A stretch of DNA of 64,000 nucleotides from a virus. The translations under genes were made by a program, and so were the position numbers. The stretch lies in the IMG/VR virus record IMGVR_UViG_3300045988_156211; one strand, written 5' to 3'. Positions 5,336 to 57,768 of the stretch are shown piece by piece (the first letter of the stretch is position 1; every line of letters starts with the position of its first letter). The notes below the pieces were generated by a model that did not search any database, was not told the origin of the DNA, and worked only from the letters and a program-made list of their open reading frames with translations.

Positions 5336-5806
5336 CTATTCGTATTTTAATGTTACATCGATTGGTTTTGGTAATATTGTGAATAAATAACCGAATTTAC
5401 CTTCATCGGTCAAAATTTCAATATATGAAGACCATACAGATCCCCTTATTCTAAATAAATCCAGTTGAACTGGACCACCCTTTAAGGGTATCTCTGTGAT
5501 ATATAATGTATGATCACTTTCAGCGTATCCATAGGATTCAAAAGTAAAGTGTGGTTTATTATCATGTATCCATAAATTACCCTCTATAAAATACTTAGGA
5601 TATCTTTCTGAGTTTTTGGTATCCATGAATTTACATTTCCATAAGTACCCTCTTCCATAAAGATATCCAAAGGTAGTTTCTGGATCGATTTCCCCATTGG
5701 GATTAGCAGGATAACTAAATATGAGTTTTGCTATGTTTGTTTTTAGATTTCTTATTAGCATGTTTACGGTTTTTAGACTTTTTTCGATGAGACAATAGGT
5801 AATCAT
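5336..5806 (-). CDS. hypothetical protein (about 156 aa)
   Basis: The track ORF 5336..5827 starts at TTG. ATG codons lie at 5806 and 5761. It overlaps the 3' end of ORF 5715..6056. Confidence 0.4.
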   Translation of the reverse strand: MITYCLIEKSLKTVNMLIRNLKTNIAKLIFSYPANPNGEIDPETTFGYLYGRGYLWKCKFMDTKNSERYPKYFIEGNLWIHDNKPHFTFESYGYAESDHTLYITEIPLKGGPVQLDLFRIRGSVWSSYIEILTDEGKFGYLFTILPKPIDVTLKYE

Positions 5807-6056
5807 TGATATCTTCCACTCTATCAAGTATTATGGCTTTTACCAATATCTTAACAGGTAAGAAGAAAATGTTCTGTATATTACTAGCATCTATGTATAC
5901 ATCATACAATTTCATGAACTTATTACGATCACTAAACTTTAAATCCCGTTGGATTAAGTAAGTGATGATAGCCTTTTTATGTAAGGCTATCAACTCTTCC
6001 CTATTTTTGGATACCTCCTTTTTGGAAAGAGCCGTATACCTCTTATAGTTAGCCAT
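5715..6056 (-). CDS. hypothetical protein (113 aa) with Lys/His-rich tail
   Basis: ATG ORF. The C-terminal 25 aa are low-complexity basic sequence lying in the overlap with the next ORF. Confidence 0.45.
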   Translation of the reverse strand: MANYKRYTALSKKEVSKNREELIALHKKAIITYLIQRDLKFSDRNKFMKLYDVYIDASNIQNIFFLPVKILVKAIILDRVEDINDYLLSHRKKSKNRKHANKKSKNKHSKTHI

Positions 6057-6115: not shown

Positions 6116-6649
6116 TTATACGACTTCCACATTTGGTTTGAGAACTTCAGATTTGTATGTTTCGAATTCCTTCTTGGCTTCCTTATATTCCTTAGAATTT
6201 TCATCCTTAATTCTAAGGTAAGCCCTTTCTAAGGTCTTGAGTTTGTTTCTTACAGATTGTCTCCATTTCTTTCTCTGAAGAGTATCCTCTATTCCTTCCG
6301 GGTATATGTATTTAACTTCCCGGTTAGAAGTTACCTTTTCAACCAATGTTGCAGCCTGCTGTTTGGCAACATCCTTGATAACCTTGTCGACCTTTTCTTC
6401 CTTGGATGCCTTCTTCTTGAGTTTGACTACCTTATCGACTTTTTCCTTGTTTTCCGTACTGTTAGGTTTAAGTAAACTCTGGATGCTTTTGAGTTTCTTA
6501 GGTTCTTCCGATTGAGATTTTTCGGATTTTGTTTTGTTAACCTTCTTAGGTTCGGTTGATTTTGTTTTTTCTACCTTGGTTTTGTTAACCTTCTTAGTTT
6601 CCTGGGTGTTCTCAGCTTTTTCGGCTTTAACTTTTAATGATTTTTTCAT
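6116..6649 (-). CDS. Lys-rich low-complexity protein (177 aa)
   Basis: The N-terminal half is K/E/T-rich with a tandem 16-aa repeat, KKVNKTKVEKTKSTEP / KKVNKTKSEKSQSEEP. The gene is driven by promoter-leader cassette copy 2. Confidence 0.6.
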   Translation of the reverse strand: MKKSLKVKAEKAENTQETKKVNKTKVEKTKSTEPKKVNKTKSEKSQSEEPKKLKSIQSLLKPNSTENKEKVDKVVKLKKKASKEEKVDKVIKDVAKQQAATLVEKVTSNREVKYIYPEGIEDTLQRKKWRQSVRNKLKTLERAYLRIKDENSKEYKEAKKEFETYKSEVLKPNVEVV

Positions 6650-6697
6650 AAATTATTATTTTAAAATGTGAAACATATATTAATTATTTTCTGTTTG

Positions 6698-6729
6698 CAA
6701 AATTAATACATTTATTTTATATATGCAAA
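6698..6729 (-). promoter_or_regulatory. Bacteroidetes-type promoter, cassette copy 2
   Basis: Has the same TTTG-N20-TAATTTTG arrangement and a near-identical leader upstream of 6116..6649 (unit roughly 6650..6765). Confidence 0.7.
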
Positions 6730-6781
6730 TATTTTTCATATTATTTTTTAAAATAGGTAGGTTCTAACAGCCAAAGTAGAG

Positions 6782-8383: not shown

Positions 8384-8418
8384 AAAAAAAGGGGAGCATA
8401 AAGTTAATTATGCTCCCC
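8384..8418 (-). terminator. intrinsic terminator downstream of 8468..9076
   Basis: GGGGAGCATA pairs with TATGCTCCCC (10-bp stem, 8-nt loop), followed on the minus strand by T7. Confidence 0.8.
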
Positions 8419-8467
8419 TAATGAATGGCTTTTACTAGAATTATATTTTGAGGAGTTTTATAAGGTG

Positions 8468-9076
8468 TCAATCCTCTTCTTTCTTCGATTTAGCCTTCTT
8501 CTTAGACTTCTCCGGCTTTTTAGATGATGCCTTGTCTTTCTTGGATTTCTCCGGCTTAACCGAATCCTTAGATTTTTCTTTGTTACCCTTTGTTTCCTTC
8601 TTGTCCTTAGGAGCCTGGTTTTTCTTTCTCATCTCCATGCGGTATTTTTTCTTCTCCGCTGAAGTCATCTCCCGGCCATCTATCAAAGGATAATCATACT
8701 TACATCGTTTTGGGTCAGATTTCTTAGTTTCCTTATCCTTACCCTTAACTTCTGATGCCTTAACTGTTTTCTTTGTTTTTTCCTTCAAGCCCTTAGCTGA
8801 CTTAGCTTCTTCGAGCTTCTCTTTTTTCATTTTTTTCATTATACTTTTCTTTATTTTAATGGTTAAATAGTTTTTCCTACTCTTACCCAAATCATTTAGT
8901 GGGTATTCGAATTGGATTTTATCTCTTTCTCGATTTATTTTTAAAAGTAATAGTCCAATCGTTTTACCATGGATTGGGTCTTTGCTATAATCCTTTAAAA
9001 GGCTCAAATTGTGTTTCTTTATATAATCAAAGAGCTCTTTTTTGGATTTGCTTAACTCTGGAGTATAATTTTCCAT
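8468..9076 (-). CDS. Lys-rich protein (202 aa), C-terminal half highly basic
   Basis: The C-terminal roughly 110 aa are K/E/S low complexity (for example KKETKGNKEKSKDSVKPEKSKKDKASSKKPEKSKKKAKSKKEED). A strong terminator follows. Confidence 0.6.
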   Translation of the reverse strand: MENYTPELSKSKKELFDYIKKHNLSLLKDYSKDPIHGKTIGLLLLKINRERDKIQFEYPLNDLGKSRKNYLTIKIKKSIMKKMKKEKLEEAKSAKGLKEKTKKTVKASEVKGKDKETKKSDPKRCKYDYPLIDGREMTSAEKKKYRMEMRKKNQAPKDKKETKGNKEKSKDSVKPEKSKKDKASSKKPEKSKKKAKSKKEED

Positions 9077-9842: not shown

Positions 9843-10226
9843 TTAATCCTCAGAATCTTCCTCTTCCTTATCCTTACCTTTTTTCTTATCCTTCTTGGGT
9901 TTCGGACTTGTTATAGTTCCGTGACCCTTTTTGGATTTGACGGTCAACTTACCGGGAACAAAGGATACCGATGTTGATAGAGGTTTGTCATCTACCACCA
10001 ATACCGAAGTGATGATTACTCCCTGATATCCATCTTTACTCTTTACCGGGTATCCATAGTTCATAACCTTTGAGTTTTCAGAGACCGGAATTACGTCCAT
10101 CTGTTTACTGTTCGGCCTTTGTTCTGCAGGTCTATTTTTCAGAGCTTCCTGACGGGCTTTTCTTTTTGCCAATTTCTCTTCTTTAGAAACTTCAGGTTTC
10201 TTTTCTTTTACATCTTTTTTTGCCAT
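9843..10226 (-). CDS. small protein with Lys-rich N- and C-terminal tails flanking a beta-rich core
   Basis: The sequence runs MAKKDVKEKKPEVSKEEKLAKRKARQ ... core YGYPVKSKDGYQGVIITSVLVVDD ... KPKKDKKKGKDKEEEDSED. A terminator follows. Confidence 0.6.
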   Translation of the reverse strand: MAKKDVKEKKPEVSKEEKLAKRKARQEALKNRPAEQRPNSKQMDVIPVSENSKVMNYGYPVKSKDGYQGVIITSVLVVDDKPLSTSVSFVPGKLTVKSKKGHGTITSPKPKKDKKKGKDKEEEDSED

Positions 10227-10287: not shown

Positions 10288-10890
10288 TTATTTCTTTGAC
10301 TTCTTAGAAGACTTATCCTTTCCGCCTTTCTTGGGGAGGGTTATGCCCAATTTCTTGGCAACATCCTTACGGAGTTTCTCTACCTCTTCCTCGTCATAGT
10401 CATCGGGATCAATGTCAAGATCATTATCCTCGCAAACATCCTCGAGTTCTTCGAAGTCCATGCCGGCCAAAGATTCGGGAGTTATCTCTTCCTCTTCCTC
10501 CTCTTCTTCCTCATCGTCTTCATCTTCGTCATCATCATCTTCGTCTTCCTCATCGTCTTCATCTTCGTCATCATCATCTTCGTCTTCCTCATCATCTTCA
10601 TCGGAATCATCATCCTCATCCTCTTCGTCCTCTTCTTCGTCATCATCATCTTCCTCAGAATCCTCTTCATCATCGTCTTCCTCAGAATCTTCGTCGTCCT
10701 CTTCTTCGTCTTCTTCCTCTTCTTCGTCTTCATCTTCCTCTCCAAAGATAGAAGAAGCCTCTTCAGGTGAAAGTACTACTGGTGCCGGAATGATCTGAAT
10801 AGATCCATCTTCGAATTTTACGATTACTGTACCATTTTCGAGGGTAGTTCTTGAAACTTCCTTTACCTCTTTCTTGCTTTTCTTTGCCAT
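10288..10890 (-). CDS. poly-Asp/Glu protein (200 aa, about 100-residue uninterrupted acidic tract)
   Basis: A short globular N-terminus is followed by an almost pure D/E tract that includes a perfect 39-bp tandem duplication. The C-terminus is Lys-rich. Confidence 0.7.
   Translation of the reverse strand: MAKKSKKEVKEVSRTTLENGTVIVKFEDGSIQIIPAPVVLSPEEASSIFGEEDEDEEEEEDEEEDDEDSEEDDDEEDSEEDDDDEEEDEEDEDDDSDEDDEEDEDDDDEDEDDEEDEDDDDEDEDDEEEEEEEEEITPESLAGMDFEELEDVCEDNDLDIDPDDYDEEEVEKLRKDVAKKLGITLPKKGGKDKSSKKSKK
10511..10588 (-). repeat. perfect 39-bp tandem duplication inside the poly-Asp/Glu gene
   Basis: TCATCGTCTTCATCTTCGTCATCATCATCTTCGTCTTCC occurs at 10511..10549 and again at 10550..10588. Each copy encodes a 13-aa acidic unit. 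Confidence 0.85.
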
Positions 10891-10927
10891 TGTTTTTAAT
10901 TTTTAAAAAGTTAAACTTAAGTGATTA

Positions 10928-13095: not shown

Positions 13096-13142
13096 AAATT
13101 ATTATTTTAAAATGTGAAACATATATTATTTAATTCTGTTTG

Positions 13143-13174
13143 CAAAATTAATACATTTATTTTTATTATGCAAA
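13143..13174 (-). promoter_or_regulatory. Bacteroidetes-type promoter, cassette copy 3
   Basis: Has the same TTTG-N20-TAATTTTG arrangement and a near-identical leader upstream of 12709..13095 (unit roughly 13096..13200). Confidence 0.7.
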
Positions 13175-13191
13175 TATTTTTATCTATTTTT

Positions 13192-35270: not shown

Positions 35271-35921
35271 ATGAGGAGAGAGAGTTACAATGGTTCAGAA
35301 ATACATAGACTAAAACCTATGAAATCCTATGATAACAAGGTTTTTATGAAAATGTATAATCTGTGTAAACCAGTAATTAAGAACCTGGTATATCACATAG
35401 ATTATAGAAGATTTAACCTTACTCAGGATATCATAGAATCCTACTTCTGGGATAAGATGTTATATGTATTTAATAAGTACTATGATTCTTCTACTGAAGA
35501 ACATCTTAAAGCTAGAATATTAGCTTCATTAAGTACTTATAAAAATAAGTTATTACGTTATGCTTATAGTGATAAAGCTTCCTATAATCAGAAGCTATCT
35601 AAGTTGGAGGATTTATTAGATAAGGATAAAGAAAGTTTAGATGATTCGGAAGATAATGAAGCATTATCCGAGATGTGGAACATGTTTACGGATTATATGT
35701 ATAAGAATTTATCCGAAGATGCTAAACTTATATTTGAGTGTTTAGTTAGTCCTCCCCCATATATAAAAGAAAGAATCAAAGAGGGTAGTAGAATAACTAA
35801 CATGATATTATTAGAGTTTTTTGATATGCCCCGTACTAAGAGTTCCCTAAAATATATTTCGGAAATAAGGGAGGATATAGATTATTGGTTAGATAGAGCT
35901 AAAAAAGATTTACACTACTAA
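35271..35921 (+). CDS. putative phage sigma factor (ECF-like, divergent)
   Basis: This is the only plus-strand gene. It has a region-2-like segment QDIIESYFWDKMLYVFNKY and a region-4-like C-terminus LSEDAKLIFECLV...SSLKYISEIREDIDYWLDRAKKDL. It has its own cassette promoter and a terminator. Confidence 0.35.
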   Translation: MRRESYNGSEIHRLKPMKSYDNKVFMKMYNLCKPVIKNLVYHIDYRRFNLTQDIIESYFWDKMLYVFNKYYDSSTEEHLKARILASLSTYKNKLLRYAYSDKASYNQKLSKLEDLLDKDKESLDDSEDNEALSEMWNMFTDYMYKNLSEDAKLIFECLVSPPPYIKERIKEGSRITNMILLEFFDMPRTKSSLKYISEIREDIDYWLDRAKKDLHY

Positions 35922-35926
35922 CACAC

Positions 35927-35960
35927 AAAAATAGGGTAGAGATAATCTCTACCCTATTTT
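35927..35960. terminator. bidirectional intrinsic terminator between convergent genes
   Basis: ATAGGGTAGAG pairs with CTCTACCCTAT (11-bp stem, 5-nt loop), flanked by A4 and T4. Confidence 0.8.
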
Positions 35961-52046: not shown

Positions 52047-53801
52047 TTAAGCGTTATCAGTTGAATCTATAGATACAGTACTTGAAGCTGCATCTATAGT
52101 TATTACTATAGAGATTTCTTGCATAGGCACTACATCTTTATACTTAAGTATAGCCTTGTATTTACCCTGCCTTACATCAGCTTCATTGTTTACTTCAAGA
52201 TTAGAGTAGTCAGTTGCATATTGATCACCCATCCAGGTATACTCTGACATAGCATTCTGGTCTACCAAGCTATCAAGCTTCGGTTTTACCTCTAAGTAGA
52301 TAGACTTCCATGTATCCCATATGTTAGGTTCCTCTATGTACTTCTCAAGTATTGGTCTAAGAGTTTTCTTGAGATACAAGTTAAGTCTAACTATAGACAA
52401 GAATCTTTCAGAATCCTGTTTAACCTGAGAAGTGAATAGATGCCAAAGCATAGTCTGCTTACCCATTGAACTAGTGTCCTTAATGACTATCATGTTGATA
52501 TAATTATGGGCCAGTTCATTTAAATCATCATACCTAGAAGGTGATCCATAGTTGGGACATACTGGACCTTTAGCATCGGTTATAATTCCTCGATTAGCCC
52601 CAGCGAATGACTTCCATGGACCATAGTTACTAGCCGAAGAATCACCAAGACCAAGTATGGTACCAATTACATCACAACTCTGAAGTCTTCCGGATTCATT
52701 ATAGTACTTGATACCACCTCCGAAATATGCAATATACTTAGAGTTACCTATAGTATTCATAACTTCATTTTGCCAAGCTACCATGTCATCAATTTTGGTT
52801 AAAGTCTTAGGTATCTCTATATAATAGGTGAATTCCTGCAAACTCTTTATTTCTTCGGCAATCTTAGTATGTATGTTGAGTTGATACTCCTTGTTGGTCT
52901 CTTCCTCTTCATCAAATACTCGATTGTACAATGATGAACAAGTTATCTGGTATACATCAACATAATCCTTGATGGTATCGAAAGCATTAACCCAATCATC
53001 TACTGATCCCGGGTATTCTGCATTTGGCAGTTCTTCGTAGTTAGGCTGTATAACTTGTACCTTCTCATTACCACTATTCCAATCAGTTACAGTAAGCTTA
53101 TTGGTTGACTGATCATATTTCTTTATAGAATCTATGAGCTTATCAAAGCTTACTTCATCAAGATTACCCTTACTATCTACAGGCTGGAAGTATGATGTAT
53201 TGCTTATAAAGTCATACAACATCTGATAATCTACAGTAGTAGGGTTAACTTCAGTAGAATTCTGATAAGAGAAGATGTTTCCACTTTCTACTTCGGTATT
53301 TGAGCTATCCTTAATTGAGTAAGTATAGTTTACTATACCCGAGGATTCTCTCTTTTTAAATGTTACCGTATAGGTATCATCTTTCTGTCCGTTGATCTTT
53401 ACTCCAAGCTTTAGAGTACCTAATTCACCAAAGGTTAGAAGAGTAAATGTTGGCTGACCTGCAGCACTTGCAAGTTCAGTCTCATATTCATCGGCCATCA
53501 ATACACCAGCACCGGGATCTGAGAAATTTCCTGGCTGTAGAGTTTCACTGGCACATACTCTTACTACTCGTAATTTAGAACCTAAAGCCAAAGCTTTCTT
53601 AACGTTTGAAATAGTACCATCTGGCATAACTTCATCACCATATATCCTTTGGAACTGTGGCCATGAAGTGATTATCTCCGATGGGTCATTAAACGGACCT
53701 TTAGTAGTTCTTGTTATTATACAAGAAACACCGTTTAACGGAGTACTTTCTTGAACATTGTTGTTCTCAAAAGTAAATTTAACTGAAGGTGAATTTGACA
53801 T
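52047..53801 (-). CDS. contractile tail sheath protein
   Basis: The 584-aa protein has a conserved C-domain segment GPWKSFAGANRGIITDAKG (the sheath PAG..RG motif) and is paired with the tube gene. Confidence 0.8.
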   Translation of the reverse strand: MSNSPSVKFTFENNNVQESTPLNGVSCIITRTTKGPFNDPSEIITSWPQFQRIYGDEVMPDGTISNVKKALALGSKLRVVRVCASETLQPGNFSDPGAGVLMADEYETELASAAGQPTFTLLTFGELGTLKLGVKINGQKDDTYTVTFKKRESSGIVNYTYSIKDSSNTEVESGNIFSYQNSTEVNPTTVDYQMLYDFISNTSYFQPVDSKGNLDEVSFDKLIDSIKKYDQSTNKLTVTDWNSGNEKVQVIQPNYEELPNAEYPGSVDDWVNAFDTIKDYVDVYQITCSSLYNRVFDEEEETNKEYQLNIHTKIAEEIKSLQEFTYYIEIPKTLTKIDDMVAWQNEVMNTIGNSKYIAYFGGGIKYYNESGRLQSCDVIGTILGLGDSSASNYGPWKSFAGANRGIITDAKGPVCPNYGSPSRYDDLNELAHNYINMIVIKDTSSMGKQTMLWHLFTSQVKQDSERFLSIVRLNLYLKKTLRPILEKYIEEPNIWDTWKSIYLEVKPKLDSLVDQNAMSEYTWMGDQYATDYSNLEVNNEADVRQGKYKAILKYKDVVPMQEISIVITIDAASSTVSIDSTDNA

Positions 53802-55190: not shown

Positions 55191-55772
55191 CTAGAACTCT
55201 TCCCAGTTTATAGATATAAACTTATCATGATGTTCTCTATCCATAAACTTAGACCATTCTTTTAATATAAACCCCTTATATAAAACTTTATTTTCAATAA
55301 GTAATCGTAGGAGATTCATACAGGATAAAACTGAACATATAAAATCAGGATATAATCTGAAATATATCCAGTTAACTAAATAAGTTATATCACCTAATGA
55401 TAAGTAGTCAGGTATATCTATACTTAAAGTATTAAGATGATTATTTATAGTATTGGGATACAATGGGCTATTAACCTTATCACTATGCAATAAACTAATG
55501 GCATATTCTGAAAGCTCAAGGTTAAATTTACCACCTACCCTTTTAAAATAATCATCAAAAGCCTTATCAGTACTATTGGTGTTTTTTTCAAACACTATAT
55601 TATGTTGATCTTCTCTAATGGCAATAGGTAATATATCTGCACCTTCTGAGAGAATATCTGTTGTTGTAGTAGTCTCAGTTTCAGGGTTATCTATAGTCAT
55701 ATGATCAACGGGTTCCTCAATGGGTATTGATTCACGAGGAACCCTCTTTTTAATTATTACCATTCTACTCAT
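55191..55772 (-). CDS. hypothetical structural-module protein (193 aa)
   Basis: ATG ORF in the late array. No motif recognised. Confidence 0.5.
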   Translation of the reverse strand: MSRMVIIKKRVPRESIPIEEPVDHMTIDNPETETTTTTDILSEGADILPIAIREDQHNIVFEKNTNSTDKAFDDYFKRVGGKFNLELSEYAISLLHSDKVNSPLYPNTINNHLNTLSIDIPDYLSLGDITYLVNWIYFRLYPDFICSVLSCMNLLRLLIENKVLYKGFILKEWSKFMDREHHDKFISINWEEF

Positions 55773-55774
55773 AA

Positions 55775-56278
55775 CTATATCTTTTGAAGTATTTTGGACA
55801 TCATGTCTTTTAGTTCTCCCATATCATTCTTTAATTCCCCTACATTACTTTCTATCTGTTTAAACCTACCTTCGGTTTCTCTCTTCTGTTTAATAATAGG
55901 ATTATGTTCAGCTAATACTTCATCACATAACTGAACTACCTTTTTATTGTAGGCTTCTCTATCTAACTCTCCCTGAGATTTATCTCTGAATATCTCCAGT
56001 TCTTTTAAAGCAACCTCTTTACTTACACATATTACGATATTATCTATTGTATATGAGACATCCTTTTCACTAAAGGTATATCTCAAACTGGGATTACGAT
56101 TAGGTATACTTAACCTTAAATCTACTACTCTATCAGTCATACCGGGTATACTAGAATCGTAATGAGGGTCAGTACTACTCTCTACCTTTAATGGGAAGAG
56201 TGTTAACTTATCTTGATCTATTTGGCTCTTATCTATAATATAGATAGAAGCACCTTCTTTAATATCTTTAAATGTCAT
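55775..56278 (-). CDS. hypothetical structural-module protein (167 aa)
   Basis: ATG ORF with a coiled-coil-like C-terminus, preceded by a strong terminator. Confidence 0.5.
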   Translation of the reverse strand: MTFKDIKEGASIYIIDKSQIDQDKLTLFPLKVESSTDPHYDSSIPGMTDRVVDLRLSIPNRNPSLRYTFSEKDVSYTIDNIVICVSKEVALKELEIFRDKSQGELDREAYNKKVVQLCDEVLAEHNPIIKQKRETEGRFKQIESNVGELKNDMGELKDMMSKILQKI

Positions 56279-56304: not shown

Positions 56305-56346
56305 ATAAAAATATAGAAAGCCAGTAATGATTAGTTACTGGCTTTC
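56305..56346 (-). terminator. strong intrinsic terminator downstream of the 147-aa GC-island gene
   Basis: GAAAGCCAGTAA pairs with TTACTGGCTTTC (12-bp stem, 7-nt loop), followed on the minus strand by TATATTTTTAT. Confidence 0.8.
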
Positions 56347-56362: not shown

Positions 56363-56806
56363 TTATGATGCAGAAGAAGAAGCACCTATAGATACTACCA
56401 CAGAATCGTTGATAACATATCCATAAGCAGCACCATTGTTTACACATGCAACACCCTGATCAGTACCAACTGAAGTGATTGTAGGAGTACTTGATGGAAG
56501 AGCAGTCCTACCTTGGAAAGCTACCTTAAATCTTCCAGTATAAGGTATTACATCAGACTTACAACCACACTTACCGGGTACTACTATTTGAATGTACACT
56601 GTGATTGGTACAAATACTGTAGTCCCAATCAATACTGAATTGCCAACTTCATACCTTACAGTAGCATTTGGCTGATTATCATTAGCGATGCAAAAAGGTT
56701 TACAAAAGCTGGCTTTAAAGGTTATCATCTCAGATAACTGATTTGCTACTGGTGCTTCTGATAGCCCAACTGGGCTCTGGTAAATTTGCAAACGCGGCTG
56801 TGACAT
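56363..56806 (-). CDS. Cys-containing beta-rich protein (147 aa), GC-rich island gene 1
   Basis: The ATG ORF has markedly higher G+C than the backbone. It contains FCKPFC and GKCGCK motifs and a Ser/Ala tail. A 12-bp-stem terminator follows. Confidence 0.65.
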   Translation of the reverse strand: MSQPRLQIYQSPVGLSEAPVANQLSEMITFKASFCKPFCIANDNQPNATVRYEVGNSVLIGTTVFVPITVYIQIVVPGKCGCKSDVIPYTGRFKVAFQGRTALPSSTPTITSVGTDQGVACVNNGAAYGYVINDSVVVSIGASSSAS

Positions 56807-56833
56807 AATTCTAATGGTTTAAAGGGTTAAACA

Positions 56834-57673
56834 TTAGAAATTACATCCATTTCCACATCCATTGTTGCATCCACATCCGCAACCATTGTTATTACGCTGC
56901 TGATACAGCAGGTTAGCAAATGCCTCTGTCTGTTCTTTCTGTGAAAGCTTGAACTTCAAATCCTGGATCTGATTAAGCTGTTCATCTCTCCAGTGAGAAT
57001 TGATCATGTCCTTGAGACCCTGGTTACCCATTTCAATGGCCTTCAGGATTTCACATTTGTCCTGACCTTGCTGGTATCCAAGCTGAGAGAATCCTCTCTC
57101 CATACCAGTGTTGGTACGGTCAAAACCGAACTGCATGTTGTTGATTATATCCTTCTGTCCAAGCTGATTCTCATAGCCCATTTTAATGATAGCCTGCTGT
57201 GTCTGGCAGCAGCAGTCCTTAATAGCTGTAAGGATACCCGTATTTCCAAGGTTAACAGCATTGATTACACGTTCAGATGTCAAACCAACCCGACCAGATA
57301 CTTTATCAATACCTGCACGGACATCACAGATAGCTCCCTGCAATGAATTGAAGTCACAGTTAAGGTTTGAAGCCAACTGATTGATAGCAGCAGCATTACC
57401 TTTTACGGCGTCCATAATCAGATTGCTGTTCTGGTTGTCCTGCATCTGAGTGCGGAGTGCCTGCAACTGATTCTGAACTTCGATGTTCTGCTGACCCTGA
57501 CCATTTGCATCCCAGCCATTTCCGAAGAAACGATTAGCAAACATAAGCCATACGAGATAAACGAATGGGTTGTTCCATTCCTGGTTTGAACCATTTCTCA
57601 TGAGAGCGGCTGCAGTAAGCATATCATTACCACGGTCACCACAACATACTACTCTATCTACGTCCATATCCAT
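56834..57673 (-). CDS. Gln/Asn-rich, Cys-rich protein (279 aa), GC-rich island gene 2
   Basis: The N-terminus contains VVCCGDRGND, followed by the hydrophobic segment PFVYLVWLMFANRFFG, an internal CCC, and the C-terminal tail NNGCGCGCNNGCGNGCNF. Sampled lines give 43-50% G+C. Confidence 0.65.
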   Translation of the reverse strand: MDMDVDRVVCCGDRGNDMLTAAALMRNGSNQEWNNPFVYLVWLMFANRFFGNGWDANGQGQQNIEVQNQLQALRTQMQDNQNSNLIMDAVKGNAAAINQLASNLNCDFNSLQGAICDVRAGIDKVSGRVGLTSERVINAVNLGNTGILTAIKDCCCQTQQAIIKMGYENQLGQKDIINNMQFGFDRTNTGMERGFSQLGYQQGQDKCEILKAIEMGNQGLKDMINSHWRDEQLNQIQDLKFKLSQKEQTEAFANLLYQQRNNNGCGCGCNNGCGNGCNF

Positions 57674-57768
57674 AAAAATAAAAATTTAAAAGTTAAACAT
57701 TTAGTGAATTAAAATATAATGATCTCTCCGGAGGAAATCAATTTCTAGTTTAAGGGTATTTTAAAAAC

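Follow-up and report, generated by a model that had tools for sequence, protein, structure and literature searches.

What does a pair of cysteine-rich genes do among the structural genes of a phage, and was it acquired from elsewhere? The question is raised by the viral record IMGVR_UViG_3300045988_156211, of which a stretch of 64,000 nucleotides (nt) was analysed; "the window" below means that whole stretch. A preliminary description, made from the letters alone, had singled out two adjacent open reading frames (ORFs) on the minus strand, 56834-57673 of 279 amino acids (aa) and 56363-56806 of 147 aa, here called genes A and B, as a two-gene cassette inside the fibre/tail module. Both ORFs are present, and so are all the motifs quoted for them: VVCCGDRGND, the hydrophobic segment PFVYLVWLMFANRFFG, DCCCQTQ and the tail NNGCGCGCNNGCGNGCNF in A, and FCKPFC, GKCGCK and a Ser/Ala tail in B. 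The antisense ORFs remarked on in this region (117 and 64 aa) both lie within gene A. However, the conserved unit has four genes and not two, and the next two genes, C and D, belong to it as well. The four genes are as follows:

56834..57673, minus strand: gene A, 279 aa, predicted all-helical, rich in glutamine and asparagine (Q/N-rich), a member of phrog_16490
56363..56806, minus strand: gene B, 147 aa, all-beta, with conserved Cys35, Cys39, Cys80 and Cys121
55775..56278, minus strand: gene C, 167 aa, an N-terminal beta domain and a C-terminal coiled coil, phrog_28898
55191..55772, minus strand: gene D, 193 aa, in a BLAST cluster whose other members match Pfam DUF7841

The window, with a mean G+C content of 33.0%, is part of a phage genome of ~82.6 kb, which was found as contigs of 82,561-82,579 bp across several samples. 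The phage is a myovirus. Its genes for sheath (52047-53801), tube, chaperone, tape measure and baseplate lie downstream of the cassette and three fibre genes lie upstream of it, one of them with an S74 chaperone domain. The site given as "inside the fibre/tail module" is, more exactly, between the fibre genes and the neck/sheath genes.

A mobile and optional four-gene cassette

ORFs, called by an ATG-to-stop rule under translation table 11 (recoded phages are under-called by this rule), were clustered over 88 loci, 80 of them from IMG/VR. Gene A was found in 87 loci, C in 81, D in about 73 and B in 59, counts that overstate independence since many of the loci are close relatives, and the order was always A-(B)-C-D. 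The cassette recurs in crAss-like podoviruses, in relatives of the ~82.6-kb myovirus and in Segatella copri prophages, including prophages inside four isolate S. copri genomes. Cassette-bearing prophages are present in S. copri G8 (NZ_CP146523.1, at about 3.10-3.11 Mb) and HDE04. Homologues of A in GenBank phages are carried by crAss-like phages of two families, lemur-gut viruses and one cultured Bacteroides phage, and viruses of Methanomassiliicoccales carry the central domain of A only. Organism names on bins of metagenome-assembled genomes are unreliable and were left out.

Homologues of C and D lie directly 3' of A/B in cr7_1, cr116_1, Dulem virus 40 and an 84-kb metagenome contig (L007). 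The profile phrog_28898 is matched by C of the window at an expect value (E) of 1.3e-9 and by C of locus L043 at E 6.5e-8. Gene D of the window matches the cr7_1 gene 3' of C at E 1e-9 and gives no Pfam match at E of at most 0.1; its cluster mates reach 52-71 bits with DUF7841 (cut-off 25.2). The alignment of the D family is very divergent. It clusters with ORF 9336-9803 of L026, which matches DUF7841 at E 9.8e-20, and the D family includes two clusters matching this Pfam entry. Below threshold, the same L026 ORF also resembles Pfam Lysozyme_like (E 1.8e-4; 21.5 bits, cut-off 25). No hydrophobic segment at all was seen in C or D. A crAss001-type head fibre was considered for C and dropped, as the PDB search gave it no sequence support.

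The flanks of the cassette vary: in the window they include fibres, and at other loci large tail proteins. In a very common arrangement the upstream side has small membrane proteins and a small HTH_17 regulator, and the downstream side has genes for a holin-like protein, a GH19 endolysin and a lipoprotein/transmembrane (TM) protein; in cr116_1 the cassette is just upstream of head genes. A conserved A-(B)-C-D order with differing flanks indicates that the unit moves between unrelated phages, and that A-(B)-C-D is a mobile, optional and conserved four-gene cassette is firmly established. In cr116_1 (L002 9584-10206) and Dulem virus 40 (L003 9699-10948) the cassette is followed by a low-complexity protein of Arg, Tyr, Asp and Glu and a ~130-aa HExxH protein, which are possible extra cassette members absent from the window. 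A full-text literature search returned no mention of phrog_16490, phrog_28898 or DUF7841, and nothing relevant on cysteine-rich crAss proteins or S. copri prophage virions.

Comparison with relatives of the window phage showed how far the cassette can be dispensed with. Contig L139 (IMGVR_UViG_3300045988_109691), whose sheath and tube are 99% identical to those of the window, has no A. After its third fibre gene it carries a divergent 127-aa B-like gene (5488-5871), C (87%) and D (50%), and a 63-nt gap leaves no space for A. The B-like gene is without the GKCGCK motif. Identity to the window is as low as 48-50% in the third fibre gene and in D, so that the whole segment has been exchanged. A further 80 more distant relatives were gathered via the neck protein, and at the cassette site most of them have an A-like protein of 211-236 aa, then an ORF of 76 aa and a C-like gene, whereas B and D are absent. 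Features of this A-like protein are a Cys cluster at the N-terminus, a Gly/Trp segment, one or two copies of CCC and a tail of the form ...AALKTTSTT, and hhalign joined it to the A family with a probability of 81% (E 1.2e-5). Neither A nor C is present in L142, L175, L195, L205, L212 and L216. In this phage group the cassette thus fills a fixed slot as an optional module and is not a core morphogenetic part, because close relatives do without A or without the whole cassette. For the same reason the earlier idea of a virion component is not borne out as far as a core structural part is concerned. The insertion is not recent, since the copies in at least nine contigs of ~82.6 kb, assembled from different samples, are identical, and the site is the same in relatives that have the cassette.

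The tail of A and the presence of B go together

The last 18 codons of A were the part that varied with the gene content of the cassette:

56837..56890, minus strand: A codons 262-279, the Cys-Gly tail NNGCGCGCNNGCGNGCNF, whose type co-varies with the presence of gene B

An A protein with a Cys-Gly tail is always followed by B, and where B is missing the tail of A is Thr-rich (...AALKTTTTT). This rule is also obeyed by the recoded A of cr7_1, and in the sole apparent exception, the L042 group, an antisense ORF had been called where the relative L070 has B. When a maximum-likelihood tree was made from the A core without its tail, the tail/B states needed 2-3 changes on it and were never discordant. 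Co-evolution of the A tail and B is therefore firmly established, and the Cys-Gly tail can be regarded as a putative docking site for B.

As to how the two proteins would be held together, metal or thiol chemistry seems likelier than pre-formed disulfides, because the hosts are anaerobes and the proteins appear to be cytoplasmic; in strictly anaerobic hosts disulfides are not expected at synthesis of proteins without a signal peptide. For the disulfide crosslinks or metal binding proposed at first, the strict pairing of the Cys-Gly tail with B, which itself bears cysteines, is the one piece of indirect support. Distant A members (P0297-P0376) have a third tail type ending in G-F/I-W-G (or -S), neither Cys-Gly nor Thr-rich, which may pair with a different partner protein. 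A 168-aa metagenome protein, P0195, is a chimeric ORF with the N-terminal third of A and the C-terminal two-thirds of B, and is either a natural deletion variant or an assembly artefact.

Protein A is a cysteine-patterned, predicted helical protein

Protein A runs from an N-terminal Cys pair through a short aromatic hydrophobic helix and a CCC motif to the Cys-Gly tail. Two of its landmarks were placed by alignment:

57521..57568, minus strand: A codons 36-51, the conserved hydrophobic/aromatic segment PFVYLVWLMFANRFFG
57206..57214, minus strand: A codons 154-156, an invariant triple Cys (KDCCC)

It matches phrog_16490 at E 9.6e-12 (residues 18-260 of 279 on profile positions 12-261 of 286), and its homologues numbered 3134 at 90% clustering, with 1010 representatives at 50% identity. 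Throughout the family the alignments show invariant or near-invariant Cys near residue 10, then WNNPFxYL..F, C106, C116, C207 and SQxxQ, and after these a variable tail. N35, P36, F37, Y39, L40 and F45 are invariant, as are C154-C156 in 34-36 aligned sequences, and CCC is kept in 81 of 94 distant representatives. The A of the window has each of the features by which we defined the superfamily from these alignments, that is, the Cys pair, the hydrophobic segment, CCC, SQxxQ and the variable tail. The AlphaFold2 (AF2) model of the monomer is all-helical with a predicted local distance difference test score (pLDDT) of 48, too poor for a structure search; such low confidence is expected for an oligomeric rod.

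No functional family was found for A in Pfam or PHROG scans, which agrees with the earlier remark that neither protein belongs to a known phage structural family: neither A nor B falls in a family of known function. Searches of PDB profiles with A, B, C and D returned sub-significant coiled-coil matches only, the best for A being the heptad repeat 1 (HR1) coiled coil of coronaviruses (E 0.005-0.2 over ~45-60 residues). A coronavirus-type spike or class I fusion glycoprotein was rejected for A, as there was no significant homology beyond the HR1 coiled-coil segment. The label of tail fibre or outer capsid fibre was not supported by the scans either: A and B match no structural family in Pfam or PHROG, in contrast to the three fibre genes beside them, which match many. 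Homologues of A are labelled "spike protein/glycoprotein" and "outer capsid protein/viral fiber" in GenBank, which is attributable to the weak compositional HR1 matches.

The single hydrophobic segment noted in the 279-aa protein is there (PFVYLVWLMFANRFFG), and it is both shorter and weaker than a standard TM helix would be: the Kyte-Doolittle 19-residue maximum reaches 1.6 in none of 204 close relatives, as compared with 2.1-2.9 in the true membrane proteins of the same loci. Among distant A representatives 12 of 94 reach 1.6, and many carry Gly/Trp-rich segments. These values bear on the idea that the cassette encodes envelope lysis proteins, with A as an i-spanin-like or signal-anchor-release-anchored periplasmic coiled coil and B as its outer partner. 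Holin-like, endolysin and lipoprotein genes do adjoin the cassette in many lineages, a Cys-bearing coiled coil recalls Rz, and the distant A members have Gly/Ala-rich hydrophobic segments. The likeness to Rz/Rz1 extends to a coiled-coil protein with functionally important Cys and a small partner, often beside holin/endolysin genes, but A is without the N-terminal TM domain and B without the lipoprotein signal of that pair. With no TM-grade segment in the A subfamily of the window and no lipobox or signal peptide in B, a spanin or holin identity fails on both hydropathy and lipobox. In addition, loci of S. copri type already have a spanin-like gene of their own, of the lipoprotein-plus-TM kind, viruses of Methanomassiliicoccales, whose hosts are without a Gram-negative envelope, carry the central domain of A, and the very strong codon bias of A is unlike that of known lysis genes. 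We consider this envelope-lysis reading very improbable.

Protein B has a candidate new fold

For B, 371 homologues were collected, and sequence searches of Pfam, PHROG and PDB gave no match, so that it falls in no catalogued family. Its AF2 model is confident (pLDDT 87.8; predicted template modelling score 0.81) and consists of long beta strands, and by the alignment and this model the four conserved cysteines lie at strand ends or in an inter-strand loop. Foldseek with the model gave no match at E of at most 1e-3 in PDB or BFVD, and the predicted fold looks novel. A jelly roll of TNF/C1q type was not matched by B, the Foldseek TM-score against PDB being at most 0.28, with no BclA among the top matches. 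At the N-terminus MSQPRLQIYQSPVGL (family consensus MxVYxSPVGLSAAPVANQ) no basic n-region, signal peptide or lipobox was seen.

The G+C content of A follows codon selection

The two genes had been described as clearly richer in G+C than their surroundings. This holds for A (G+C 43.9%), whose G+C content at third codon positions (GC3) is 0.457, the highest in the window, compared with 0.271 ± 0.053 in 70 other window ORFs (maximum 0.409; z = 3.5). It does not hold for B at this level: GC3 is an ordinary 0.243, and because the excess is in codon positions 1 and 2 only, its high G+C (39.9%) is explained by amino-acid composition. Other window genes are also similarly rich overall, such as 10288-10890 (43.4%) and the 507-aa fibre (41.3%).

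Across the loci A ranked highest in GC3 in 72 of 87 (ORFs of at least 100 aa), with a mean excess over its neighbours of +0.148 at a locus G+C from 28% to 59%; the excess of B was +0.016. In the window 29 of the 30 Gln codons of A are CAG, compared with 53% in other genes, and ATC, TTC, CGT, GGT and GCT are preferred as well. In A, C ends a share of 0.48 of the NAY codons and G a share of 0.75 of the NAR codons, which is more than in the capsid gene (0.31 and 0.66) and also more than in the sheath and tube genes. The CAG preference is 90-97% in most lineages, and in a phage of 28% G+C (L029) it is kept (30/37 as compared with 9/42) without the other preference for C at third positions. The Gln bias is not mirrored in Glu or Lys codons across lineages, and a link with CAG/TAG interconversion in recoded phages is conceivable.

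These values point to the G+C of A as a by-product of gene-specific codon selection, most simply for very high translation. They also bear on the view that the foreign composition suggests horizontal acquisition, in its full form that of a recently acquired G+C-rich island encoding disulfide-cross-linked or metal-binding virion proteins. Such an island would agree with the presence of the cassette in unrelated phages with different flanks, with A being the GC3 outlier of the window and with the conserved Cys clusters of A and B. But the GC3 of A keeps a constant offset of ~0.15 from each resident genome, from 28% to 59% G+C, and not a constant absolute value, so A is ameliorated everywhere and biased by selection and not by origin; a foreign island is rejected on this ground, and a compositional genomic island fails because the composition tracks the resident genome and not a donor. 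The CAG usage of A and the ordinary GC3 of B do not fit a foreign composition either, the insertion is not recent (at least nine identical contigs, relatives with the same site), and disulfides are unexpected at synthesis in strict-anaerobe hosts when no signal peptide is seen. We give this reading very little probability, and it is largely excluded together with the spanin reading.

Expression signals of the cassette

Three elements around A and B are relevant to their expression:

56316..56346, minus strand: hairpin between B and C (12-bp stem, T-rich tail), a terminator/attenuator or 3'-end stabiliser
57684..57701, minus strand: leader element AATGTTTAACTTTTAAAT, ending 11 nt before the ATG of A
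56818..56835, minus strand: leader element AATGTTTAACCCTTTAAA, ending 11 nt before the ATG of B and overlapping the A stop codon

The hairpin (56346..56316 as read on the minus strand) has a perfect 12-bp stem followed by TATATTTTTA. It had been called the strongest terminator in the window and the end of the cassette. The stem length stands, but a hairpin at 8419..8390 has an equal 12-bp stem and a better T-run, so it is among the best two or three, and the cassette does not end there, as C and D are part of the same conserved unit. A strong hairpin was found at 46 of 50 unique A/B-C junctions (median -22.8 kcal/mol) as against 67 of 130 controls (median -10.1), the controls being other same-strand junctions of similar length. 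It is kept in position and not in sequence, and the stems are unrelated between lineages.

Exact copies of AATGTTTAAC on the minus strand are confined to the sites before A and B. A longer form of the motif, ATGTTT[A/C]AC..TTTTAAA, is enriched (13 copies, 3.8 expected), and the six gene-proximal copies all end 11-12 nt before an ATG. A promoter was considered for this shared motif and rejected: because three other copies lie downstream of canonical Bacteroidetes promoters of the form TTTG-N19-TAnnTTTG, the motif is a 5'-leader element. A nearly identical upstream region of ~80 nt is common to three genes (2648-2730, 6650-6730 and 13096-13176, minus strand; proteins of 162 aa, 177 aa and Lys-rich, and 128 aa) and contains TTTG-N19-TAATTTTG, a promoter of Bacteroidetes type, together with the leader ATGTTTCACATTTTAAAATAATAATTT-ATG. 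Before a fourth gene the leader motif takes the form AAGTTTAACTTTTTAAA, at 10891-10918.

The codon bias of A, the leader element of A and B and the conserved position of the hairpin are signals of very high expression, in support of the high expression as a separate unit that had been proposed, and by the same three signs A and B would be made in large excess over C and D. Recoded phages offer a hint on timing, since in-frame TAG at Gln positions suggests late expression in recoded gut phages. The phage cr7_1 (L001, NC_055895.1, 4132-10810) reads TAG as Gln, and its in-frame TAGs (A 6, C 3, D 4, tail gene 14) suggest late expression of the cassette, like that of the tail gene. Just upstream of its cassette are a tRNA-Gln gene and a reverse transcriptase, likely a diversity-generating retroelement.

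A putative late accessory assembly

The account we favour, though with rather less than even confidence, is that A and B form a late, cytoplasmic and possibly membrane-proximal accessory assembly. A would oligomerise into a helical Q/N-rich stalk with internal Cys layers (CCC), and its Cys-Gly tail would capture the beta-sandwich protein B, whose four-Cys cluster is predicted to sit at one end. Shared metal or thiol chemistry could link the two into an abundant stalk-and-head assembly, with C and D, in much lower amounts, as adaptor or assembly partners. The complex would form late in infection in the reducing cytoplasm, and its role would most likely be an accessory one at the cytoplasmic face of the membrane around lysis and not that of a required virion part. 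A cytoplasmic late assembly is favoured because of the regulator/lysis neighbourhood, the membrane-like N-terminal segments of distant members and the dispensability of the cassette.

Several points weigh against this account. The contact between A and B is deduced from co-occurrence over 2-3 independent events, in a set of loci of which many are close kin, and L139 keeps a divergent B-like gene without any A. The oligomeric stalk is drawn from composition and weak coiled-coil matches, with a monomer model of low confidence. Membrane association is weak in the subfamily of the window, where 0 of 204 sequences pass the hydropathy threshold. The position of the cassette between fibre and neck genes in a structural operon, and a codon bias of A that exceeds that of the capsid gene, would equally fit an abundant virion decoration.

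Because of this position and of the capsid-like codon bias, the main rival is an accessory fibre or decoration of the virion surface. A would then be a trimeric coiled-coil stalk on the capsid or neck, perhaps attached via C, with B as a distal knob and D as an assembly factor, and Thr-rich tails would replace the knob where B is absent. The site of the cassette in the window is within the late structural operon, with the three fibre genes on one side and the neck genes on the other; in cr116_1 it is just upstream of head genes, and the codon bias of A is equal to or above that of the capsid, sheath and tube genes. The rival also agrees with the Q/N-rich helices, which weakly match trimeric coiled coils, with a range of hosts whose envelopes differ greatly, as would suit a particle-borne role, and with the optional presence that is normal for decoration proteins. 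However, no tail-fibre, decoration or capsid family was matched in Pfam, PHROGs or PDB, and at many loci an HTH_17 regulator and membrane proteins before the cassette and lysis genes behind it make up a classic accessory-gene slot. One and the same cassette would also need docking on podo-, myo- and siphovirus particles, and the hydrophobic/Gly-rich N-terminal segment of distant A members looks membrane-directed. On balance we judge a decoration unlikely, while taking it seriously.

A bolder proposal, which we hold to be improbable, is a novel supramolecular structure, in which an abundant helical Cys-layer A would be capped via its tail by B of a new fold, with oxygen-sensitive thiol or metal (possibly Fe-S) chemistry and with C and D as low-copy assembly factors, confined to viruses of strict gut anaerobes (Bacteroidota, Bacillota and viruses of methanogens). 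R-bodies, a four-gene polymer kit, follow a similar logic and have no homology to the cassette.

Comparison with known systems

The catalogue families phrog_16490, phrog_28898 and DUF7841 cover A, C and the cluster mates of D, and their entries carry no function. Tailed phages carry morons and other accessory cassettes, such as lambda lom/bor and HK97 gp15, at their tail-fibre/lysis junction. Like these, the present cassette is optional among relatives and mobile, has its own expression signals and a terminator-like hairpin, and often comes with a small regulator. Unlike them, it also occurs in virulent crAss-like phages, it consists of four co-evolving genes and its codon bias is above that of the capsid gene; its products have no similarity to any known moron product.

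T4 fibritin, reovirus sigma1, P22 gp26 and coronavirus HR1 share Q/N-rich helical repeats with A, and the coupling of A and B suggests a stalk-plus-head logic. But the Cys layers, Cys-Gly tail and hydrophobic N-terminal helix of A are without counterpart there, and the matches are compositional and sub-significant. Metallothioneins and designed Cys-layer coiled coils bind metals. Their Cys-X-Cys repeats are like those of the A tail, and a stack of Cys layers would be possible if A is a parallel oligomer. In contrast to metallothioneins, A has no match to a family of this kind in the Pfam scan (E of at most 0.1), and its Cys tail is tied to a specific protein partner, B.

Other features of the window

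The gene 10288-10890 (minus strand) encodes a 200-aa protein that is mostly poly-Asp/Glu, with a G+C content of 0.716 at first codon positions and a long antisense poly-Ser ORF. Around it are Lys-rich basic proteins (6116-6649, 8468-9076 and 9843-10226, minus strand), none with a PHROG match, and together the acidic and basic proteins might form a DNA-mimic or histone-like group. At 35928-35960, beside the only plus-strand gene of the window (35271-35921), is a perfect inverted repeat of 15 bp whose loop is 3 nt long and which has no T-run.

Significance

The phages that carry the cassette (crAss-like phages, ~85-kb Bacteroidales myoviruses and S. copri prophages) are among the most abundant of the human gut, and none of the four cassette proteins has a known function or a published description; B is also without a recognisable fold. 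The "spike" and "fiber" labels on A homologues in GenBank should not be propagated, as their basis is coiled-coil composition. The lead gene A appears, from its codons, to be tuned for expression above the capsid gene, and the cassette can be tested directly in the S. copri isolates and in C3_41T2LP, a cultured Bacteroides phage that infects B. uniformis MB20-41. A module kept in order across thousands of phages must confer a strong advantage in the anaerobic gut, and to identify it could bring a new step in the biology of phages to light.

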